DNA of 64,000 nt from an uncultured Alphaproteobacteria bacterium (GTDB taxonomy: Bacteria > Pseudomonadota > Alphaproteobacteria > Sphingomonadales > Sphingomonadaceae), in the NCBI GenBank assembly GCA_963727345.1, contig CAVSFG010000006.1, forward strand, positions 651,142 through 715,141, read 5' to 3'. Numbering within the stretch: position 1 is the stretch's first letter; each line of letters begins with the position of its first letter. Shown in pieces: positions 9,559-23,964 of this stretch. A program made the position numbers and the translations under genes. The notes below the pieces were generated by a model, which did not search any database, was not told the DNA's origin, and worked only from the letters and a program-made list of their open reading frames with translations.

Positions 9559-10260
9559 TTAGCCCGCCGCGTCGGCATCCAGCGCATAACCAGCCGAGCG
9601 CACGGTCCGGATCAGGTCGGCGCCCGCCAGTCACATTGATCGCCTTGCGCAGACGGCGAATATGAACGTCAACGGTCCTGAGCTCGATTTCGCTGTCGCG
9701 GCCCCAGACGGCGTCGAGCAGCCGTTCGCGGGAGAAAACGCGGCCCGGATGTTCGAGGAAATGGCGCAGCAACCGGAACTCGGTCGGCCCGATCGAGATC
9801 GGCGTACCGCCGCGCCGCAGTCGGTGGCTCACCAGGTCCATCTCGATATCGGCATAAGCGCAGCTTCTCGCCCGCCAGCGCCGGCCGCATCCGGCGCAGC
9901 ACCGCCGAGACCCGCGCGACCAGTTCCTTCGGCGAGAACGGCTTGGTGATATAATCGTCCGCGCCGGTCTCGAGGCCGCGCACCCGGTCGGCCTCCTCGA
10001 TCCGCGCGGTCAGCATGATGATCGGCACGTTGGCCGTCTCGGGCAGCCGCCGCAGCCGCCGGCACACCTCGATCCCCGAGACGCCCTCGATCATCCAGTC
10101 GAGGATCACCAGGTCCGGCGGGCTTTCCCGCGCCATCAGCAACGCATCCTCGCCGTCGGCGGTCGCCTCGACGGTGAACTCCTCCCGCCGCAGATTGAAG
10201 GTCAGGAGCTCGACGAGGGCGCTGATCGTCCTCGACGAGCAGGATGCGGCCCTTGCTCAC
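9559..10260 (-). CDS. phoB: Phosphate regulon response regulator PhoB (frameshifted)
   Basis: ILLVEDD, LDWM, GADDYITKPFS and RTVDVHIRRLRK; follows phoU. Confidence 0.9.
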
Positions 10261-10975
10261 GCCTTGTCGCCGATCTGGCCGGCGTTGATCTCGGTCGTGT
10301 CCGCGCCCTTCGCCCGATCGCCGAGATGCCGGCCGGTCGAGGCGAAATAGACCATCTCGGCGACATTGGTCGCATGATCGCCGATCCGCTCGAGATTCTT
10401 GGCGACGAACAGCAGGTGCGTCGCCGGCGTGATGTTGTGCGGATTTTCCATCATATGGGTGAGCAGGGCGCGGAAGATCGAGTTGTAGAAATCGTCCACC
10501 GCCGCGTCGCGCTCGCATACCGCCTGCGCCTTGGCGGCGTCGCGCTGGACGAAGGCGTCGAGCACGTTGTGCACCATCTCGCCGGCGATCCGCGCCATTT
10601 CGGGCAGCAGCGACAGCGGCCTGATCTTGCTGTCCTCGACGCTTGCGACCCGCTTGGCGATGTTCTTGGCATAATCGCCGATCCGCTCGACCACGCCGGC
10701 GATCTTCAGCGCCGCGACCACTTCGCGCAGATCGTCGGCCATCGGCGCGCGCAGCGCGATGATCTGGACGGCGCGGCGCTCGACCTCGGCCTCCAGCGCA
10801 TCGATCCGCGCGTCGCGCTCGATGACCCGAGCGGCGGCGTCGGCGTCGCGCTTGACGAGCGCCTCCATCGCCTCGGCGGATCGCCGCTTCGGCGAGGCCG
10901 CCCATCTCCGCGATGGTGGCGCGCAGCGCGTTCGAGTTCCTCGTCGAACGCCTTGATCGTGTGGCCTGTCGCCAT
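10257..10975 (-). CDS. phoU: Phosphate signalling protein PhoU (frameshifted near N-terminus)
   Basis: HTIKAFDEEL; ERIGDYAKNI and ERIGDHATN repeats. Confidence 0.92.
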
Positions 10976-10985
10976 ATCGCTCTCC

Positions 10986-11732
10986 TCAGCCGTAGCGGCC
11001 GGTGATGTAGTCCTTGGTCCGCGTCTCGCGCGGATTGGTGAAGATCTCCGAGGTCTCGCCATATTCGACGAGATCGCCGAGGTGGAAGAAGGCGGTCCGC
11101 TGCGAGACGCGCGCCGCCTGCTGCATATTGTGGGTGACGATGACGATCGCGTAGCGGCCGCGCAGCTCGTGGATCAGCTCCTCGATCTTGGCGGTGGCGA
11201 TCGGATCGAGCGCCGAGCAGGGCTCGTCCATCAGGATCACCTCGGGATCGACCGCGATCGCGCGGGCGATGCAGAGCCGCTGCTGCTGGCCGCCCGACAG
11301 AGCCGTGCCGCTTTCCTGCAGCCGGTCCTTCACCTCTTCCCACAGGCCGGCCCGCCGCAGCGAGCGCTCGACGATCACGTCCATCTCGCTCTTGTTCGCG
11401 GCGAGGCCGTGGATGCGGGGGCCGTAGGCGACATTTTCGTAGATCGACTTGGGGAAGGGGTTCGGCTTCTGGAACACCATGCCGACCCGGGCGCGCAGCT
11501 GCACGACGTCCATGTCGGTGCCGTAGATATCCTCGCCGTCGAGCTCGATCCGCCCTTCGACGCGCGCCGACGCGATCGTGTCGTTCATCCGGTTGAGGGC
11601 GCGCAGGAAGGTCGATTTGCCGCAGCCGGACGGCCCGATGAAGGCGGTCACATTCTCCTGGCGGACCTCGATCGATACGTTATCGATCGCCTTCTTCTCC
11701 CCATAGAAGACGCTGACATTTCGTGCCGCCAT
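10986..11732 (-). CDS. pstB: Phosphate ABC transporter ATPase
   Basis: [26 protein letters not shown] and DYITGRYG. Confidence 0.95.
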
Positions 11733-13040: not shown

Positions 13041-14425
13041 AGGCTTCGCGATATTTCTTCACGACGCGCAGGGCGACGATGTTGAGCGCCAGAGTGACTA
13101 GGAACAGCACGAAGCCAAGCGCGAAGGCCGCCAATGTCTTGGGCGAATCGAACTCCTGATCGCCGGTGAGCAATTGGACGATCTGGGTGGTGACGGTGGT
13201 CACGCTGGCGAAGGGGTTGGCGGTCATGTTGGCGGCAAGGCCCGCGGCCATCACCACGATCATCGTCTCACCGATCGCCCGGCTGACCGCCAGCAGGACG
13301 CCGCCGACGACGCCCGGCAGGGCGGCGGGGACGAGCACCTTCTTGATCGTTTCGCTGGTCGTCGCGCCCATCGCCAGGCTGCCGTCGCGCATCGCCTGTG
13401 GCACCGCGGCGATGCTGTCGTCGGCCATCGACGAGACGAAGGGGATGATCATGATCCCCATCACCAGCCCTGCGGCGAGCGCGCTCTCGGTGGAAGCGGG
13501 AATGCCGAGCGAAAGGCCGAGATCGCGGATCGCCGGCGCCACGGTAAGCGCGGCAAAATAGCCGTAGACGACGGTCGGCACGCCGGCGAGGATTTCGAGG
13601 ATCGGCTTTAGCCAAGCCCGAACCCGGGGCTTGGCATATTGGGTGAGGTAGATCGCGCTCATCAGGCCCAAGCGGAATCGCGACGATCATGGCGATAATC
13701 GCGCCGATGAAGATCGTGCCCCAGAAGAGCGGAATTGCGCCGAACGCACCCGACGACCCGGCCTGATCGGCGCGGATCGCCATTTGCGGGCTCCAGGTCA
13801 GACCGAACAGGAACTCGATCGGCGAGACCATCGAGAAGAAGCGCAGCGATTCGAACAATAGCGAAAGGACGATGCCGAGCGTGGTCAGGACCGCGATCAG
13901 CGAGGCGAGCAGCAGCACCGCCATCATCACCCGCTCGACCCGGGTGCGGGCGCGGAATTGCGGGGAGAGGCGGCTGAACGCCCAGGCGCCGCCGGCGAAG
14001 GCGACCAGCATCGCGACCGCGAAGCCGATCCAGTGGTAGAAGGCGAGGGCGCGGGCATAGACCGGCGCCAGCGCGAACGCCTCGCGGTTGAACGCGGTCG
14101 TCGAGGCGCCGGTCGCGAGCGCATGGGCTTCGTTGAGGATCGTCGAGCGCTGCATCCCGAAGCCGGGCAGGTTCGCCGCCTCCGGGCTGGCCAGCACCTG
14201 CGCATAGACGAGGTTGCCGGAAACATTCTGCCAGACGACCAAGAAGAGCGCCGCCGGCACGACGGTCCACAAGGCGACATACCAGCCATGCTGGCCGGGC
14301 CGCGAATGGGGCCGTTCCTTGGTGGCGCCGCCGATACCGGCGAAGGCCGCCGCGCGCGCCCGTCCCGAGAGCCAGGCAACCAGCCCCAGCCCCGCGACGA
14401 GCAACGCGATGACGGCGATCGACAT
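13033..14425 (-). CDS. pstC: Phosphate ABC transporter permease PstC (frameshift near 13670)
   Basis: ILAGVPTVVYG and SRAIGETMIV; N-terminal part in ORF 13268..14425. Confidence 0.92.
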
Positions 14426-16839: not shown

Positions 16840-18070
16840 TCAGTTTCGTGACTCTTCCGTGACAGTCGCGAGCGGCAACAGAACACGGGCGATCGTTCCT
16901 TCGCCGACGGTGCTGGCGATCTCGAGCCGGCCGCGATGGCGCTGGACGATATGCTTGACGATCGCGAGGCCGAGCCCGGTGCCGCCCACCTGCCGGCTGC
17001 GGCTGGCGTCGACGCGATAGAAACGCTCGGTGAGGCGGGGCAGGTGCTCGGCCGCGATTCCCTCGCCTTCGTCGATCACCGCGACCGACAGCATGTCGCC
17101 TTCCGCCGGCGAGAGCCGCACCCGGATCGGCCGCCCGGCGCGGCCATATTTGATCGCATTGCCGACGAGGTTGGCGAGCATCTGGACGAGCTGGGCGCGA
17201 TCGCCCTGAACGACCGCCCGCGGCGCGTCGTTTTCGATGACCAGAGTCGCATCTTGTGCGGCGATCGTTTGCGCAAGCGCGTCGCGCACCTCATTGATGA
17301 CGTCCTCTAGGTCGACCGGCGCGCGGGGCGCGCGCGAATCGCTCCGCTTCGATCCGCGACAGCGACATGAGATCGTCGACCAGGTCGCGCATCCGGGTCG
17401 CTTCGCCCGACATGATGCGAAGGAAGCGCGAACGCGTCTCGGGATCGCTCGCCGCCGCCTCGTCCTCCAGCGTCTCGAGGAAGCCAAGCAGGGTCGCGAG
17501 CGGAGTGCGCAGCTCGTGGCTGGCGTTTGCGACGAAGTCGACGCGCATCTGCTCTGCCGCCCGCGATCCACCCTGATCGATCAGGCGAACGAGCTGGCCG
17601 CCGTCCGGCAGCAGCCGCAAGCGCATCAGCCACGGGCGGCCGGCCTCGCCGAGGCCGACGATCTCGATGTCTTCTGTGCCTCGCTCGCTGGACTCGCCGG
17701 TGAGGCGCTCGGCCGCGGCGGGGTGGCGGATGGCCAGACGCACGTCGACGCCGTCGATATGGGCGCCCAGCAGTTCCTTGGCGGCCGCGTTGGCGCGCAG
17801 CACCCGCCGGTCGCGGACGAGCAGGACCGGTTCGTCAAGCGCCTCGATGAGATCATCCAGCCGCAGCGCGACGGGCGCGGGCCCGTCGTCGGCCGTCACG
17901 GCGGGGGCCGTCGCGCTCCGGCCCGGCCAGGCGATGGCGCCGACGACGAGCGCGGCGGTCAGCGCGGCGAGGCTCGCGACCGGCGGTGCGCCCAGCCACC
18001 AGGCCAGCCCGCTGCCGCCGACCGCGGCCAGCGCGGCGAAGAGCGCCCGTGTCAGCTGGTCACCTGTCAT
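16840..18070 (-). CDS. phoR: Phosphate regulon sensor histidine kinase (frameshift near 17330)
   Basis: H-box FVANASHELRTPL, N-box NLVGNAIKY, G-boxes DEGEGI and GGTGLGL; two N-terminal TM helices. Confidence 0.88.
16848..16865 (-). promoter_or_regulatory. Pho box upstream of the porin, embedded in the 3' end of phoR
   Basis: Minus strand CTGTCAC-ggaa-GAGTCAC with 11-bp spacing, about 55 bp before the porin start. Confidence 0.65.
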
Positions 18071-18164
18071 CCCGATCCGTCCCGATGCGGCACGGACCCA
18101 TGGTCCCGCTCGCCTTCGCCGCGCTTTACCCTTAATAAATCGTGCGAGTGTATCGGAATTTCCC

Positions 18165-18566
18165 ATGAGCGGCGCTGACGAGCCAAAGCCTGACGATGCG
18201 TTTCAGCCGAGCCGGCGCAGCTTCCTCTATTTGGGAGCCGCGGCGGCCTCGACGGTCGTCACCATCCGCCCCGCCCTCGCCCAGACGGCGGGCTCGGTGC
18301 TGAGCTGCGAAATCCCGGTGCCCGGACCGCATGCCGCCGGCAATTATATCGCGCCCGACGGGACGACGGTCGCGCCGGGCACGGCGGGCGCCTCGCCGCC
18401 GCTGACGCGGCCGTTGCGCGGCGAGGAGGCCCGGATGCTGCTGCGCGGTTCGACGCCGCCCGGCGTCAATCCCGGCTCGTCCCAGGCCTACGCCAATTAT
18501 ATCCGGCGGCTGCAGACGGGGATGAGCGGCTTCACCTGCTACGCCTCGCTGCAGATGCCGCGTTAA
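18165..18566 (+). CDS. Twin-arginine signal hypothetical protein, candidate substrate of the downstream modification cassette
   Basis: SRRSFL Tat motif, hydrophobic stretch and PALA|Q cleavage site; two Cys (VLSC, FTCYAS); 133 aa. Confidence 0.7.
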   Translation: MSGADEPKPDDAFQPSRRSFLYLGAAAASTVVTIRPALAQTAGSVLSCEIPVPGPHAAGNYIAPDGTTVAPGTAGASPPLTRPLRGEEARMLLRGSTPPGVNPGSSQAYANYIRRLQTGMSGFTCYASLQMPR

Positions 18567-18582
18567 GTTAAGACGCCCGGCC

Positions 18583-18859
18583 ATGGCCGGTCCCCGCTAC
18601 ATCGCCGACCTCAGCCGAGGATGTGCGGATCGTCGCGCTCGACGGCCTGTCGGTGCTCTATCACGCGCCCTCCGGCATGACCCACATCGTCGCGCCGCCC
18701 GCGCCCGAGATTCTCGAAGCGCTTCAGCCCGGGGCCGCCGACATCGCCGAGCTGATCATGCGGCTGCGCTCCCGCTACGAGCTGGAAGGGGATGCCGATG
18801 ATATCGTCGCGCTGCGCCTTGCCGAGCTCGAGCAGGCGGGCTTGGTGCGCCGCGCATGA
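18583..18859 (+). CDS. PqqD-family / RiPP recognition element chaperone (HPr-rel-A type; frameshift near 18610)
   Basis: About 90 aa; LYHAPSGMTHIV...EILEAL...LAELEQAGLV is the PqqD three-strand/three-helix pattern. Confidence 0.8.
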
Positions 18860-19722
18860 GACACAGCCTCGCCTTGCGGATCGGGCCGGTCGGTTTCCGG
18901 GTCGGCTCGGCCTGGGCCGGGCCGATCCGGACACTCGCCGCGCTCTATGACGGCTATCCCGAACCCGAGGACGGCATTTGCGATTTCACCGTCCGGCTGG
19001 AGCCGCAACGGCCGTGGCGGCGCTGGCTGCGCCCGTCGGTGGCGATCCGGGGCGATTATATCCTCCCCGACGCCGCGCCGCTGCCGCTCGCCATGGGTCT
19101 GCTCGCCGCCGAAATGGGGATGAACCTGCAGATGGCGCTGGGGCAGAAGCGCTATCTGCTCCTCCACGCCTCGAGCGCCGAGAAGGATGGCCGCGCCCTG
19201 ATCATGACCGGTGAATCCGGCGCCGGGAAATCGACCTTGTCGGCACTGCTTGGCGAACGCGGCTGGCGGCTGATGGGCGACGAGTTCGCCTTGCTCGATC
19301 TCGCCGACGGCGGCCTTCATCCCTTTCCGCGCGCGATCAGCCTGAAGAACGGCGCAATCCGAGTGATGGAGAACGAGGTCGCGGCGGACCGGTTCGGCCC
19401 CCGACTGGAAGACACGCCGAAGGGCGTGATCCGCCATCTTCGCCCCAACGCCGCGGCGATCGCCGGCATGGGCGAGAAGCGCGAAGCCGGCTCTGATCCT
19501 TTTCCCGCGCTTCGGCCGGCCGGCGGAAGCGCGCCCCGTCGGTCAGGCCGAAGTCTTCATGCGGCTGACCCAGGCCTCGACCAATTATGTCACGCTCGGC
19601 GCGGCCGGGTTCGAGGCGCTGACCGGTCTGGTCCAGAACTGTCCGGCCGCGGCGATCGACTATCCGGACACCGACGAGCGGCATCGGATCTGGTCGAAGA
19701 GCTTTGGCAGGCGGCGGCATGA
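18856..19722 (+). CDS. HprK-related kinase A (two compensating frameshifts near 19480 and 19680)
   Basis: LLLHAS, Walker A GESGAGKS, LMGDEF and PFPRAISLKN. Confidence 0.85.
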   Translation: MRHSLALRIGPVGFRVGSAWAGPIRTLAALYDGYPEPEDGICDFTVRLEPQRPWRRWLRPSVAIRGDYILPDAAPLPLAMGLLAAEMGMNLQMALGQKRYLLLHASSAEKDGRALIMTGESGAGKSTLSALLGERGWRLMGDEFALLDLADGGLHPFPRAISLKNGAIRVMENEVAADRFGPRLEDTPKGVIRHLRPNAAAIAGMGEKREAGSDPFPALRPAGGSAPRRSGRSLHAADPGLDQLCHARRGRVRGADRSGPELSGRGDRLSGHRRAASDLVEELWQAAA

Positions 19723-20771
19723 GCGCCGGCGCGGCTCCTCGTACGCGCGCTGCGCGATCCGGCGTCGGCCAAGGGCTGCGACTGGCCGGCGCTGATCGCC
19801 GCGGCGCGGGCGGAGCGATTGCTGGGCAGTCTCGCCTACCGGCTGGAAGGGCAGGACGTGCCGGCGCCGGTCGCGCGCATCCTCGAGGACGCACGGCGCG
19901 ATGCGGCGCAGGCGCGCACCCAGGCGCTCTGGGAAGCGGAGATGGCGCGCCGCGCGACCGCGCATCTCGGCGTCCCGGTCGTCCTGCTCAAGGGCACCGC
20001 CTTCCACGCCGCCGATCTCGACGCCGCGCGAGGGCCGCTCGGTCGGCGATCTCGATATTCTCGTGACCCGCGAGTCGATCGAGCTGGTCGAGAAGGCGCT
20101 CGTCATTGCCGGCTGGGAACGGCTCAAGGAGGAGGGCGGCTATGACGACATCTATTATCGCCGCTGGATGCACGAGCTGCCGCCCTTGATCCATCGCGAG
20201 CGCGACCGGATGATCGACGTCCATCACACGATCCTGCCGCCGACCGCTCGCCCGACGCCCGACGCCGCCGCGCTGATCGCGGACAGCGTCGCGCTGCCGA
20301 ATGGCCTGCGCATCCTCTCGCCGGCCGACATCATCGTTCACGCCGCCGCGCACCTGTTCGCCGACGGCGATCTCGCCGGCGGGCTTCAGGAACCTGTGGG
20401 ACATCGACCGGCTGCTGCGCCAGTTCGCCGCCGATCCCGCCTTCTGGCCGGCGCTCGCGGCCCGCGCCGCGCATCACCAGCTCCGCCCGCATGTCGCCCG
20501 CGCCCTGCGTCTTTCGGCGCGGCTCTACGGCACGCCGGTCGACGCCGCGCTCGCCGGGCGGGCGCGCTTGAGCGACCGCCTGTTCGAGGCGCGGCTGCTG
20601 GCCCGCAACGGCTGGGGGCAGGAGACCCGCAAGGCGCTCCGCTTCGCTTTCTACGTCCGCTCGCACTGGCTCAGGATGCCGCCGCTGATGCTGGCGCGGC
20701 ATCTCTGGACCAAGGCGCGGCCGGGGACTGGCATATCGCGCCGGTCCATGCCATCCGCGAGCCGTGTCTAG
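19719..20771 (+). CDS. Nucleotidyltransferase family protein (NTP_transf_5-like; frameshifted)
   Basis: VVLLKG, RSVGDLDILV and IDVHH motifs; ATGA overlap with the kinase. Confidence 0.8.
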
Positions 20772-20780
20772 GGAAGTCGA

Positions 20781-22139
20781 ATGACCGCAAGGCCGCTGGC
20801 CGCCGTGATCCTCGCCGCCGGCAAGGGCACGCGGATGAAGTCCGATCTGCACAAGGTGCTGCACCCGATCGCCGGGCGCGCGATGCTCGATCACCTCATG
20901 GGCGTGCTCGAGACGCTGGCGCCGAAGCGCAAGATCGTCGTCGTCGGCGCGGGTCGCGAGCAGGTCCAGAGCCTGGTCGAGGCACGCGGCGGCGAGCTCG
21001 TCGTGCAGCAGCAGCAGCTCGGCACCGCTCATGCGGTGCGGATGGCCGAGGAGAAGCTCGCCGGATTCGCCGGTGACGTGCTCGTTCTCTACGGCGATAC
21101 GCCTCTGATCGAGGCCGAAACCATGGCGCACATGCTTGATCGCCTCCGCGCGCCCGATGCGCCAGCGATCGTCGTGGTCGGCTTTCGGCCGGCCGATCCA
21201 CTCCAATATGGCCGGATCGTCGCCGAGCCGGACGGGACGATCGTCAAGATGGTCGAATATAAGGACGCGAACGAGGCCGAGCGCGCGATCGATCTTTGCA
21301 ATTCCGGGCTGATGGCGGCGCGTGCCGCCGACCTCTTCGCGTTGCTCGCCCGCGTCGACAACGACAATGCGGCGGGCGAATATTATCTCCCGGATGTGGT
21401 TAAGCTCGCCGCCATGGACGGGCGCAGATCGGCGGTGATCGAGGCTGAACCCTGGGAAATGGCGGGGGTCAACAGTCGCGCCGAGCTCGCTTTGGTCGAG
21501 GCCGAATGGCAGCGCCGCCGCCGCCGGGAAGCCATGGCCGACGGCGTCACGCTCGTTGCGCCCGACACGGTCTGGTTCGCGCACGACACCGTGGTGGGCC
21601 GCGACACGTTGATCGAGCCCAATGTCGTGTTCGGCCCCGGCGTCACGATCGGTGAGCGGGTGATCGTCAAGGCGTTCAGCCATATCGAGGGCGCGACGAT
21701 CGCGGCCGGCGCGCAGGTCGGCCCCTATGCGCGGCTTCGTCCCGGCGCGGAGATCGGCGAGGACGCCCGGATCGGCAATTTCGTCGAGGTGAAGAAGGCC
21801 CGGATCGGCAAGGGCGCGAAGGCCAGTCACCTGACCTATCTCGGCGACGCCGATATCGGTGCGGGCGCGAACATCGGCGCCGGCACGATCACCTGCAATT
21901 ATGACGGCTTCCTGAAATATCGCACGGTGATCGGGGAGGGGGCGTTCATCGGCTCGAACAGCGCCCTGGTCGCGCCCGTGACGATCGGTGCCGGCGCAAT
22001 CGTCGGCGCGGGCTCGGTCGTCACCCGCGATGTCGCCGCGGATGCGATTGCGCTTGGCCGCGGCGAGCAGGTCGAGAAGCCGGGTCGCGCCAAGCGATTC
22101 CGGAAAGTGATGGCGGCGAAGAAGAAGGCGCAGACCTAG
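20781..22139 (+). CDS. glmU: Bifunctional GlcNAc-1-P uridyltransferase/acetyltransferase
   Basis: LAAGKGTRMKS, GEYYLPD, GNFVEVK and GAGTITCNYDG. Confidence 0.97.
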   Translation: MTARPLAAVILAAGKGTRMKSDLHKVLHPIAGRAMLDHLMGVLETLAPKRKIVVVGAGREQVQSLVEARGGELVVQQQQLGTAHAVRMAEEKLAGFAGDVLVLYGDTPLIEAETMAHMLDRLRAPDAPAIVVVGFRPADPLQYGRIVAEPDGTIVKMVEYKDANEAERAIDLCNSGLMAARAADLFALLARVDNDNAAGEYYLPDVVKLAAMDGRRSAVIEAEPWEMAGVNSRAELALVEAEWQRRRRREAMADGVTLVAPDTVWFAHDTVVGRDTLIEPNVVFGPGVTIGERVIVKAFSHIEGATIAAGAQVGPYARLRPGAEIGEDARIGNFVEVKKARIGKGAKASHLTYLGDADIGAGANIGAGTITCNYDGFLKYRTVIGEGAFIGSNSALVAPVTIGAGAIVGAGSVVTRDVAADAIALGRGEQVEKPGRAKRFRKVMAAKKKAQT

Positions 22140-22140
22140 T

Positions 22141-23964
22141 ATGTGCGGAATTATCGGGATCGTCGGTACCAGTCAGGCCGCGCCGCGGCTCATGGATGGC
22201 CTCAGACGGCTCGAATATCGCGGTTATGACAGCGCCGGCCTCTGCACCATCGTCGATGGCCGCCTCGAGCGGCGCCGGGCCGAGGGCAAGCTCGACAATC
22301 TCCAGCGCGAGCTCGACACGTCCCCGCTTCCCGGCAATGTCGGCATCGCCCACACCCGCTGGGCGACGCATGGCGCGCCGACTGTCGGCAACGCCCATCC
22401 CCACGTCGTCGGCGCGGTCGCCGTCGTCCACAACGGCATCATCGAGAATTTCCGCGAGTTGCGCGAGGAAATGCAGGCCAAGGGCCGCACGTTCACCAGC
22501 CAGACCGACAGCGAAACCGTCGCTCATCTCGTCGACGACCGGCTCCAGCAGGGCGACGATCCGGAAGCCGCCGTCGCCGCCGTCCTGCCGCGCCTGCACG
22601 GCGCCTTCGCCCTCGCCATCCTGTTCCGCGACCATCCCGGCCTGATCATCGGCGCCCGGCTCGGCGCGCCGCTCACCGTCGGCTACGGCGAGGGTGAGAA
22701 TTATCTCGGCTCGGACGCGCTGGCGCTCGCCGCGCTCACTCGTCGCATCGCCTATCTGGACGAAGGCGACTGGACGGTAATCACCCATAATCAGGTGAAG
22801 GTGTTCGATCGCAACAACCAGGCCGTCGAGCGGCCGATCGTCGATTCCGGCGCCAGCGCGGCGCGGATCGAGAAGGGCAATCACCGCCACTTCATGCAGA
22901 AGGAGATTTTCGAGCAACCGATGGTCGTGGCGCAGACGCTCGGCGCCTATGTCCGTCAGCTCGAGCAGGAAATCGCTCTGCCCCATGCCGATTTCGATTT
23001 CGCGTCGGTGCCGCGGATCGAGATCGTCGCCTGCGGCACCTCTTATTATGCCGGCATGGTCGCGAAATACTGGCTGGAACGCTTCGCCCGGGTGCCGGTC
23101 GAGCTCGATATCGCCAGCGAGTTCCGGTACCGCGATCCGGTGCTCGAGCCGGGCGGCATGGCCCTGTTTGTCAGCCAGTCGGGCGAGACCGCCGACACGC
23201 TCGCCGCGCTTCGCCATGCGCGGGAGAAGGGCCAGAAGATCGCCGTCGTCGTCAACGTGCCGACCAGCTCGATGGCGCGCGAGGCCGACCTGCTGCTGCC
23301 CACCCATGCCGGCCCGGAGATTGGCGTCGCCTCGACCAAGGCTTTCACCTGCCAACTCGCTGTGCTCGCCGCGCTCGCCGCCAAGGTGGCGCGTGACAAG
23401 GACGTGATCAGCGCGGCGGAAGAGCGGGAGATCGTCAAGCATTTGACCGAGGCACCGGCGGCGATGAACGCCGCGCTCGCCCATGACGAGGACATCCAGG
23501 CGCTCGCGCCTGTTATCGCCCAAGCCCGCGACGTCCTCTATCTCGGCCGCGGCCAGGATTATCCGCTGGCGCTGGAAGGGGCATTGAAACTCAAGGAAAT
23601 CAGCTACATCCACGCCGAAGGCTATGCGGCGGGCGAGATGAAGCATGGCCCGATCGCGCTGATCGACGAGAATGTCCCGATCATCGTGATCGCGCCCTCG
23701 GGCCCGCTGTTCGAGAAGACCGTCTCCAACATGCAGGAGGTCCAGGCGCGCGGCGGCAAGGTCGTGCTGATCTCCGACGCGGACGGCATCGCGGCCGCCG
23801 GCGAGGGCGCGATCGCAACCTTGGAAATGCCCAAGGTTCACCCGCTGATCGCGCCGCTCGTCTATGCGGTGCCGGTGCAGTTGCTCGCTTACCATGTCGC
23901 GGTGGCGAAGGGCACGGACGTAGATCAGCCGCGCAATCTGGCGAAGAGCGTGACGGTGGAGTGA
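22141..23964 (+). CDS. glmS: Glutamine--fructose-6-phosphate aminotransferase
   Basis: MCGI N-terminus, HTRWATHG and C-terminal PRNLAKSVTVE. Confidence 0.98.
   Translation: MCGIIGIVGTSQAAPRLMDGLRRLEYRGYDSAGLCTIVDGRLERRRAEGKLDNLQRELDTSPLPGNVGIAHTRWATHGAPTVGNAHPHVVGAVAVVHNGIIENFRELREEMQAKGRTFTSQTDSETVAHLVDDRLQQGDDPEAAVAAVLPRLHGAFALAILFRDHPGLIIGARLGAPLTVGYGEGENYLGSDALALAALTRRIAYLDEGDWTVITHNQVKVFDRNNQAVERPIVDSGASAARIEKGNHRHFMQKEIFEQPMVVAQTLGAYVRQLEQEIALPHADFDFASVPRIEIVACGTSYYAGMVAKYWLERFARVPVELDIASEFRYRDPVLEPGGMALFVSQSGETADTLAALRHAREKGQKIAVVVNVPTSSMAREADLLLPTHAGPEIGVASTKAFTCQLAVLAALAAKVARDKDVISAAEEREIVKHLTEAPAAMNAALAHDEDIQALAPVIAQARDVLYLGRGQDYPLALEGALKLKEISYIHAEGYAAGEMKHGPIALIDENVPIIVIAPSGPLFEKTVSNMQEVQARGGKVVLISDADGIAAAGEGAIATLEMPKVHPLIAPLVYAVPVQLLAYHVAVAKGTDVDQPRNLAKSVTVE

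Follow-up and report, generated by a model that had tools for sequence, protein, structure and literature searches.

A conserved four-gene cassette of Sphingomonadales that couples a putative Tat-exported protein to an RRE, an HprK-related kinase and a nucleotidyltransferase

Bacterial peptide natural products that carry phosphate are known from two groups of biosynthetic systems in which a precursor gene lies with a kinase related to HPr kinase. In the paeninodin-type lasso peptides, the C-terminal Ser of the linear precursor receives a phosphate from the HPr-kinase homologue PadeK, and in the pseudomycoidin system (PsmK, PsmN) the nucleotidyltransferase PsmN adds a hexose to that phosphate (PMC8498205). 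The second group, the clusters for linear polyphosphorylated peptides (LPPs; LppA, LppK, LppB, LppS, LppD and LppN; Popov et al., Nat Commun 2026), combines a precursor of 35-200 residues with a recognition element of the type that serves peptides made on the ribosome and modified after translation (RiPPs) (RRE), an HprK-like kinase, a SipW-like leader peptidase, an exporter and a nucleoside triphosphate (NTP) transferase, and this family is described as restricted to Bacillota (PMC13381572). In these clusters LppK polyphosphorylates Ser3 of the core, just past the leader cleavage site (PMC13381572). Here we describe a four-gene cassette at positions 18165-20771 of a 64,000-nucleotide stretch of DNA from an uncultured member of the Sphingomonadaceae (assembly GCA_963727345.1, contig CAVSFG010000006.1), referred to below as the window. 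The four-gene operon most likely modifies one small exported protein, and would represent a proteobacterial relative of the phospho-lasso and LPP gene sets that is coupled to the twin-arginine translocation (Tat) pathway.

The window has a G+C content of ~69% and belongs to a 2.83 Mb genome in 6 contigs with a marker-gene completeness of only 85%; relatives of this genome are Sphingosinicella and Allosphingosinicella (Sphingomonadales). The cassette comprises four co-directional genes arranged head to tail on the forward strand. The first, the putative precursor gene (18165..18566), encodes a 133-residue protein with a Tat signal (SRRSFLYLGAAAASTVVTIRPALA|Q) in an intact frame, and is followed by genes for a PqqD-family RRE (18583..18859), an HprK-related kinase A (18856..19722) and a nucleotidyltransferase (19719..20771). 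A gap of 16 bp (18567-18582) separates the first two genes, and the remaining two junctions have spacings of -4 bp, with ATGA overlaps at 18856 and 19719. This gap, the overlaps and the common direction of the genes are those of the original prediction, which had been made from the letters of the window and a list of its open reading frames (ORFs), and the motifs it had listed (GESGAGKS, GDEF, LKG, DLD and DVHH) are all found in the window. The families and positions that it gave for the four genes also stood, but the possible breakage of the enzyme genes in this particular genome, which we discuss below, had not been considered.

The RRE matches TIGR04353, named 'HPr-rel-A system PqqD family peptide chaperone', with 58 bits against a cut-off of 35 (E 1.3e-15) over model positions 2-74 of 74, and its profile is closest to the lasso RREs TfuB1 (the best solved relative, 6jx3, E 4e-4) and TbiB1. 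The adjacent kinase matches TIGR04352, 'HprK-related kinase A' (E 1.1e-52, limited to model positions 1-204). As assembled, the kinase scores 178.9 bits over TIGR04352 positions 1-204 and 48.9 bits over positions 200-275 in another frame, a split that results from two insertions near 19478 and 19675; the curated cut-off of the model is 200 bits, and intact relatives score 228-262 bits (235-262 for same-genus orthologues). The kinase carries the GESGAGKS and GDEF motifs, keeps the P-loop, preceding His and acidic pair of HprK/P, and has HprK/P structures (1ko7, 1jb1) as its best solved relatives; its invariant residues H104, S121, G122, G124, K125, S126, D142 and E143 fit the HprK/P active-site layout. 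The fourth gene matches PF14907 (NTP_transf_5) over three frames (E 1.9e-7, 7.6e-20 and 1e-6), and an intact orthologue (L047:2901-3902) matches the same family end to end with E 6e-50. Residues K91, G92, D110, D112 and D166 of the transferase are invariant in 35 sequences. An AlphaFold2 model of the intact transferase has a predicted local distance difference test score (pLDDT) of 94, and a Foldseek search with this model returned MenT1 (8an5, E 2.4e-4) and ANT(2'')-Ia (E 2.8e-3), with a further resemblance to JHP933. These three enzymes move a nucleoside monophosphate from an NTP to a hydroxyl acceptor. Judged by the predicted structure, the PF14907 enzyme has a true Pol-beta nucleotidyltransferase fold.

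The cassette resembles the LPP clusters in several respects. In both, a stand-alone RRE, a kinase resembling HprK and an NTP transferase are encoded beside a precursor gene, the precursor can be protein-sized and the leader cut is of the signal-peptidase type. The phosphorylated Ser3 of the LPPs lies just after this cut, and the cassette precursors always have a Ser 2-8 residues past the AxA cleavage motif. In contrast to the LPP clusters, no SipW-like signal peptidase or MsbA-like exporter was found in the operon or in the syntenic block of 20 relatives, and Tat together with the general signal peptidase would substitute for them. Further differences are that the leader of the cassette precursor is a twin-arginine signal and is devoid of a YxxPxVLxHQ-type RRE-binding motif, that two invariant Cys and a core predicted with confidence to be folded mark the product, and that the cassette is chromosomal and syntenic across an order, whereas LPPs are patchy in distribution. 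With lasso systems the cassette shares an RRE whose nearest sequences are B1 proteins, and the combination of kinase and nucleotidyltransferase seen in paeninodin and pseudomycoidin. It differs from them in its putative substrate, a folded domain of 95 residues compared with a lasso peptide of ~20, and in the position of its candidate Ser, which lies 5 residues from the C-terminus and not at the terminus itself. It also lacks the lasso maturation enzymes: no match to the B2 peptidase (PF13471) is present in the whole genome (85% complete), and no asparagine-synthetase-like cyclase is encoded in the operon or its flanks (phoR, pstS, glmU and glmS), the genome as a whole not having been searched for the latter. 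The absence of a lasso cyclase, radical SAM enzyme, peptidase and exporter from the locus had been noted in the original prediction and agrees with the lack of room in the four-gene operon and of PF13471 in the genome; the analogy that it drew between this kinase-nucleotidyltransferase pair and the phosphorylated lasso peptides was correct, and the LPPs of Bacillota now provide the better fit.

Since its adjacent genes match both TIGR04352 and TIGR04353, the locus belongs to what NCBIfam names the 'HPr-rel-A system'. These names cover the pairing of kinase and chaperone only, and those returned include neither a substrate nor a nucleotidyltransferase partner. The cassette is an HPr-rel-A member that stands outside the LPP and lasso families, though its way of working is most likely similar to theirs. 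A further comparison is offered by the Tat proofreading chaperones (redox enzyme maturation proteins such as TorD, DmsD and NapD), small cytoplasmic proteins each of which binds the twin-arginine signal of one cognate substrate and holds it until maturation in the cytoplasm is done. These proteins have folds unrelated to this RRE and serve cofactor insertion rather than covalent tailoring; the likeness of the cassette RRE to them would therefore lie in the mode of working only, and the binding of RRE to signal is proposed.

The linkage of the Tat ORF to the three enzyme genes is widely conserved. The TIGR04352 kinase is present above the cut-off in 29 of the 41 sampled Sphingomonadales genomes (the source genome counted), representing 15 of 17 genera, and in 61 of 401 sampled Pseudomonadota genomes, about one in seven. 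For 20 Sphingomonadales loci taken with wide flanks, the order pstS-phoR, then divergently the ORF, PqqD, kinase and transferase genes, then at some distance glmU-glmS, is syntenic, and all 20 have directly 5' of the PqqD gene an ORF of ~120-240 residues with a twin-arginine (RR) signal and an AxA site that is soon followed by a Cys. With 80 further species added to this set, and loci with enough upstream DNA taken as informative, the Tat ORF precedes the RRE gene in 73/73 informative Sphingomonadales loci, and the transferase gene lies 3' of the kinase gene in 124 of 128 loci. Of 13 loci examined from other orders of Alphaproteobacteria, 10 have the ORF by the family profile, and in two more its position is taken by a divergent ORF with an RR signal; an RR-signal ORF also precedes the PqqD gene in all 12 inspected loci of the phylum-wide sample. 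The phyletic profile of the precursor is equally consistent: each of five kinase-positive Sphingomonadales genomes yielded exactly one strong match, always at the cassette, and ten of ten kinase-negative genomes of the order (90-100% complete) yielded nothing. These genomes are related, so that the pattern is not a statistical proof, and within the sample co-presence and co-absence are complete. The test that had been set for the prediction, whether the upstream ORF is conserved beside homologues of the kinase and RRE, thus came out positively, and this conserved linkage, together with the co-absence of precursor and kinase, supports a RiPP-like modification system at the level of comparative genomics.

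Some loci depart from the common arrangement. In several Sphingobium a co-directional gene for a glycosyltransferase of family GT4 (~393 residues; PF00534, E 4e-29) lies between the precursor and PqqD genes (L069:3476-4660, L100:3475-4653, and loci L091, L102 and L120), an insertion that hints at a sugar on the final product. In one Sphingomonadales genome (locus L026), two diverged precursor paralogues flank the PqqD gene (L026:4504-4965, 153 residues, and L026:5334-5912, 192 residues), the second of which contains an Asn/Gly-rich insert; we counted this pair flanking the RRE gene as support for the precursor role of the family.

The precursor in the window has the organization expected of a Tat substrate, with an acidic N-region, the twin arginines in SRRSFL (an S/T-R-R-x-F-L-K-type motif), an h-region ending in VVTIRP and an ALA|Q cleavage site (SRRSFLYLGAAAASTVVTIRPALA|Q). 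On the TIGR01409 TAT_signal_seq model it scores 16.5 bits against a cut-off of 16.7, and is borderline by this hidden Markov model alone. The cleavage site is followed by S44-x3-C48, a core of approximately residues 55-118 and a tail with C125-x-x-S128. The family has no Pfam or NCBIfam model; its 2979 homologues are all hypothetical by name and none carries a Pfam domain. In 67 diverse precursors, with identities between families down to 17-30%, C48, C125 and S128 are the only invariant positions, with R17, R18 and L21 close to invariant. Every one of the 67 has a Ser at most 4 residues before the first Cys (chance ~0.26 per sequence) and a C-x-x-S within the last 40 residues, and the spacing from RR to the first Cys is 28-37 residues. 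The conserved layout therefore runs from an RR signal through AxA, S-x(2,3)-C and a variable core to C-x-x-S with a short tail behind it, and in other Proteobacteria of the phylum-wide sample the tail reads SCW[ST]SF, in which the C-x-x-S is kept. The h-region, a candidate contact of the RRE, follows the pattern [VIL][VILM][TS][LIF]x[SGP] across the family, which a generic signal peptide would not usually do. One homologue (L031:4928-5647) has a long Asp-rich insert with His/Gly repeats (DDDDDD...RHRNQTGRGHDEHG, repeated twice) between the Cys motifs, which indicates that the precursor core is highly tolerant of insertions.

An AlphaFold2 model computed from the alignment of these 67 sequences has pLDDT values of 90-95 for residues 61-110 and of ~50-65 for the leader and the two tails that bear the Cys, as would be expected of a small protein that is folded in the middle and has conserved, flexible tails. 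A Foldseek search of the PDB with this model returned no hit at E <= 0.001, the wide VIA-align search gave a best Z of 2.9, and the ESM Atlas returned only unnamed hypothetical-protein clusters of Pseudomonadota, probably the family itself. The modeled core thus matches no recognised fold, which is not proof of a new one. A folded core with flexible tails suits export by Tat rather than Sec, and TatC is encoded in the source genome (244 bits). We also considered Cys48 as the lipidated Cys of a lipoprotein. A lipobox has Ala, Gly or Ser at position -1, whereas most relatives have Asn there (SVLNC), and a clean AxA lies 8-9 residues upstream; this assignment was rejected.

Taken together, these features suggest a sequence of events that we regard as fairly probable: the RRE would hold the Tat leader, the kinase would phosphorylate a conserved Ser, the nucleotidyltransferase would extend the phosphate, and the folded product would leave the cytoplasm through Tat. 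The 133-residue precursor would be synthesized in the cytoplasm, where the PqqD-like RRE would bind its N-terminal leader, that is, the twin-arginine signal with its fixed h-region motif, and present the precursor to HprK-related kinase A. Two positions are candidates for phosphorylation, Ser128 in the C-x-x-S tail and the Ser that precedes Cys48 by 2-4 residues and lies shortly after the signal-peptidase site. The PF14907 enzyme would then place a nucleotide-derived or sugar-containing group on the phosphate, and the decorated, folded protein would be handed to the Tat translocon and its leader cut by the general signal peptidase I. The two Cys would probably form a disulfide joining both tails. 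A complex prediction with the intact RRE of locus L047 and residues 1-62 of the L047 precursor gave 'no answer' (score 0.08, mark 0.32) and was not counted for or against binding.

Several observations weigh against this interpretation. Our literature search, in which few subscription journals were covered, returned no study of or experiment on members of the cassette, and its single mention of PF14907, in a phosphonate paper, was uninformative. In the LPP study, deletion of the NTP transferase changed nothing detectable, so that the second step is unproven even in that system (PMC13381572). The [YW]xxP motif bound by known lasso and LPP RREs occurs before the first Cys in only 1 of the 67 precursors and not in the leader of the window, which would make the mode of recognition unprecedented. 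Outside Sphingomonadales, approximately one third of the precursors are of a second, longer Tat-signal type ('type B'; loci L148, L151, L152, L167, L168, L169 and L172) of ~180-260 residues with no C-terminal C-x-x-S. Because of these, Ser128 is not a universal site, and the cassette seems to act on two or more families of substrate. Finally, six frame-breaking insertions are spread across the 2.2 kb of the three enzyme genes in the window, and this organism may have no working pathway.

The substrate relation itself rests on gene neighborhood and conservation, and these would also be seen if the Tat protein were a conserved working partner of the enzymes, for example the periplasmic part of the same envelope process, while the enzymes acted on another protein or peptide from a gene elsewhere or on a non-protein acceptor such as a glycan or lipid precursor. 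The Sphingomonadales locus has the pst/phoR phosphate genes on one side and, on the other, glmU-glmS for the supply of uridine diphosphate N-acetylglucosamine, a setting that would suit such a role, as would the type B upstream proteins with no C-x-x-S tail. The link to glmU-glmS is, however, loose outside this window. In addition, PqqD/RRE domains serve to bind peptides and the one encoded here is nearest to the leader-binding B1 proteins of lasso systems, the operon contains neither another ORF nor intergenic room for a hidden peptide (gaps of 16, -4 and -4 bp), and the fixed parts of the Tat protein, namely the leader and the Ser/Cys motifs in flexible tails, form the pattern of a modified substrate. 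We therefore consider it unlikely that the enzymes act on something other than the Tat protein.

The second alternative concerns the window rather than the family. By alignment of the window to three intact relatives, we placed one extra base in the RRE gene near 18615, with the ATG at 18583 in frame 1 and the body from ~18616 in frame 2; an alternative GTG start at 18623 would give a 78-residue product that lacks the first strand. The kinase gene has +1 near 19478 and +2 near 19675, which leave ~66 codons, including the conserved RLTQASTNYV block, out of frame, and the nucleotidyltransferase gene has +1 near 19728, 20028 and 20381 and uses three frames. The inserted bases thus total three in the kinase and three in the transferase, and the start and stop codons of each of these genes share one frame. 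It is conceivable that the cassette is real in the lineage and decaying here, with the enzyme genes as pseudogenes and the intact Tat protein left unmodified or heading for loss. The six insertions fall in the PqqD, kinase and transferase genes, with none in the precursor gene (0.4 kb), glmU-glmS (3.2 kb) or pstS (1.07 kb), and the whole cassette is missing from two genomes of the same genus, so that loss does occur. We retain decay as a rival because of this high local density of six insertions in 2.2 kb. The six frameshifts are, however, most likely consensus errors of the assembly, a view that we favor because other genes of the window are broken too: pstC has +1 at 13665, phoR is split, and 9586-11065 contains 3-5 frame switches in ~1.5 kb. 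A marker completeness of 85% in a genome of only 6 contigs is what consensus errors would give. All six events are insertions of one or two bases, with no stop codon derived from substitution, and the segments between the breaks retain ~66-80% protein identity to an intact relative, unlike the product of long neutral decay. Genomes that lack the kinase have also lost the precursor. Decay of the cassette in this organism is thus improbable in our judgment; with its enzymes frame-broken in the assembly, this window taken alone is nevertheless of lower value.

That the cassette is instead a remnant or satellite of a classical lasso or LPP cluster whose core enzymes and short precursor lie elsewhere in the genome is very improbable, as the genome has no PF13471 lasso peptidase at its 85% completeness, the four genes keep a single syntenic position throughout the order with no lasso or LPP genes, the leader has no YxxP, and HprK-like genes with lower scores in other genomes, perhaps of the lasso type, adjoin neither this RRE nor the Tat ORF.

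The cassette is flanked upstream by the divergent phoR-pstS-pstC genes and downstream by glmU-glmS (20781..23964, forward strand), which we list as context and do not claim as members. The glmU start lies 9 bp past the end of the cassette with no terminator-like site in between. In other Sphingomonadales this distance is occupied by 0.7-2.2 kb of unrelated genes (a hydrolase of the haloacid dehalogenase type and hypothetical proteins), and a functional link of glmU-glmS to the operon was rejected, as the tight junction is specific to the window and unrelated genes intervene in relatives.

On the other side, the likely phoR start is at 18070 (CAT on the forward strand at 18068-18070), which leaves 95 nt to the precursor ATG at 18165. 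An alignment of the 140 nt 5' of the Tat ORF from 20 genomes provided three conserved elements in this divergent intergenic region. A palindrome at 18079..18093 reads GTCCCG-N3-4-CGGGAC in relatives and GTCCCGATGCGGCAC in the window, and is a candidate operator. A second stretch at 18124..18162 on the forward strand consists of CTTTACCCTTA(A/T)TAAA, a spacer of ~8 nt and GTGTATCGGA(A/T)TTTC, ends 2 nt 5' of the ATG and is almost unchanged in the closest relatives; it is a candidate promoter or regulator site of the cassette. Judged from the aligned DNA, the three elements are probably regulatory sites common to the divergent phoR and cassette promoters. A scan for sigma-70 consensus sites and terminators gave no convincing site before the cassette or between the cassette and glmU.

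A wider interpretation of the cassette, in which the twin-arginine signal serves at once as export signal and RRE leader, the RRE, as a Tat proofreading chaperone, ties release to the completion of tailoring, and the quasi-symmetric S-x(2,3)-C and C-x-x-S motifs are sites of a chemistry new for proteins, is tentative and in our view unlikely. This chemistry may be a glycan or nucleotide linked by a phosphodiester to the Ser beside a Cys staple, or it may be a thioether that arises once the phosphate has been eliminated. Such proteins, tailored under RRE guidance and exported by Tat, would then form a new class that is near-universal in Sphingomonadales and present in about one in seven of the 401 sampled Pseudomonadota genomes.

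The kinase-chaperone pair has been named in databases for years with no known substrate, and now has a candidate substrate, with Ser44, Cys48, Cys125 and Ser128 of the window protein as candidate residues. If the proposed modification pathway holds, RRE-guided tailoring, so far a hallmark of peptide natural products, would extend to a folded housekeeping protein and would be tied to Tat export, with the export signal acting as leader. The wide distribution of the kinase (61/401 Pseudomonadota and 29/41 Sphingomonadales genomes) indicates that the product of the cassette likely matters for the envelope or surface biology of these bacteria.

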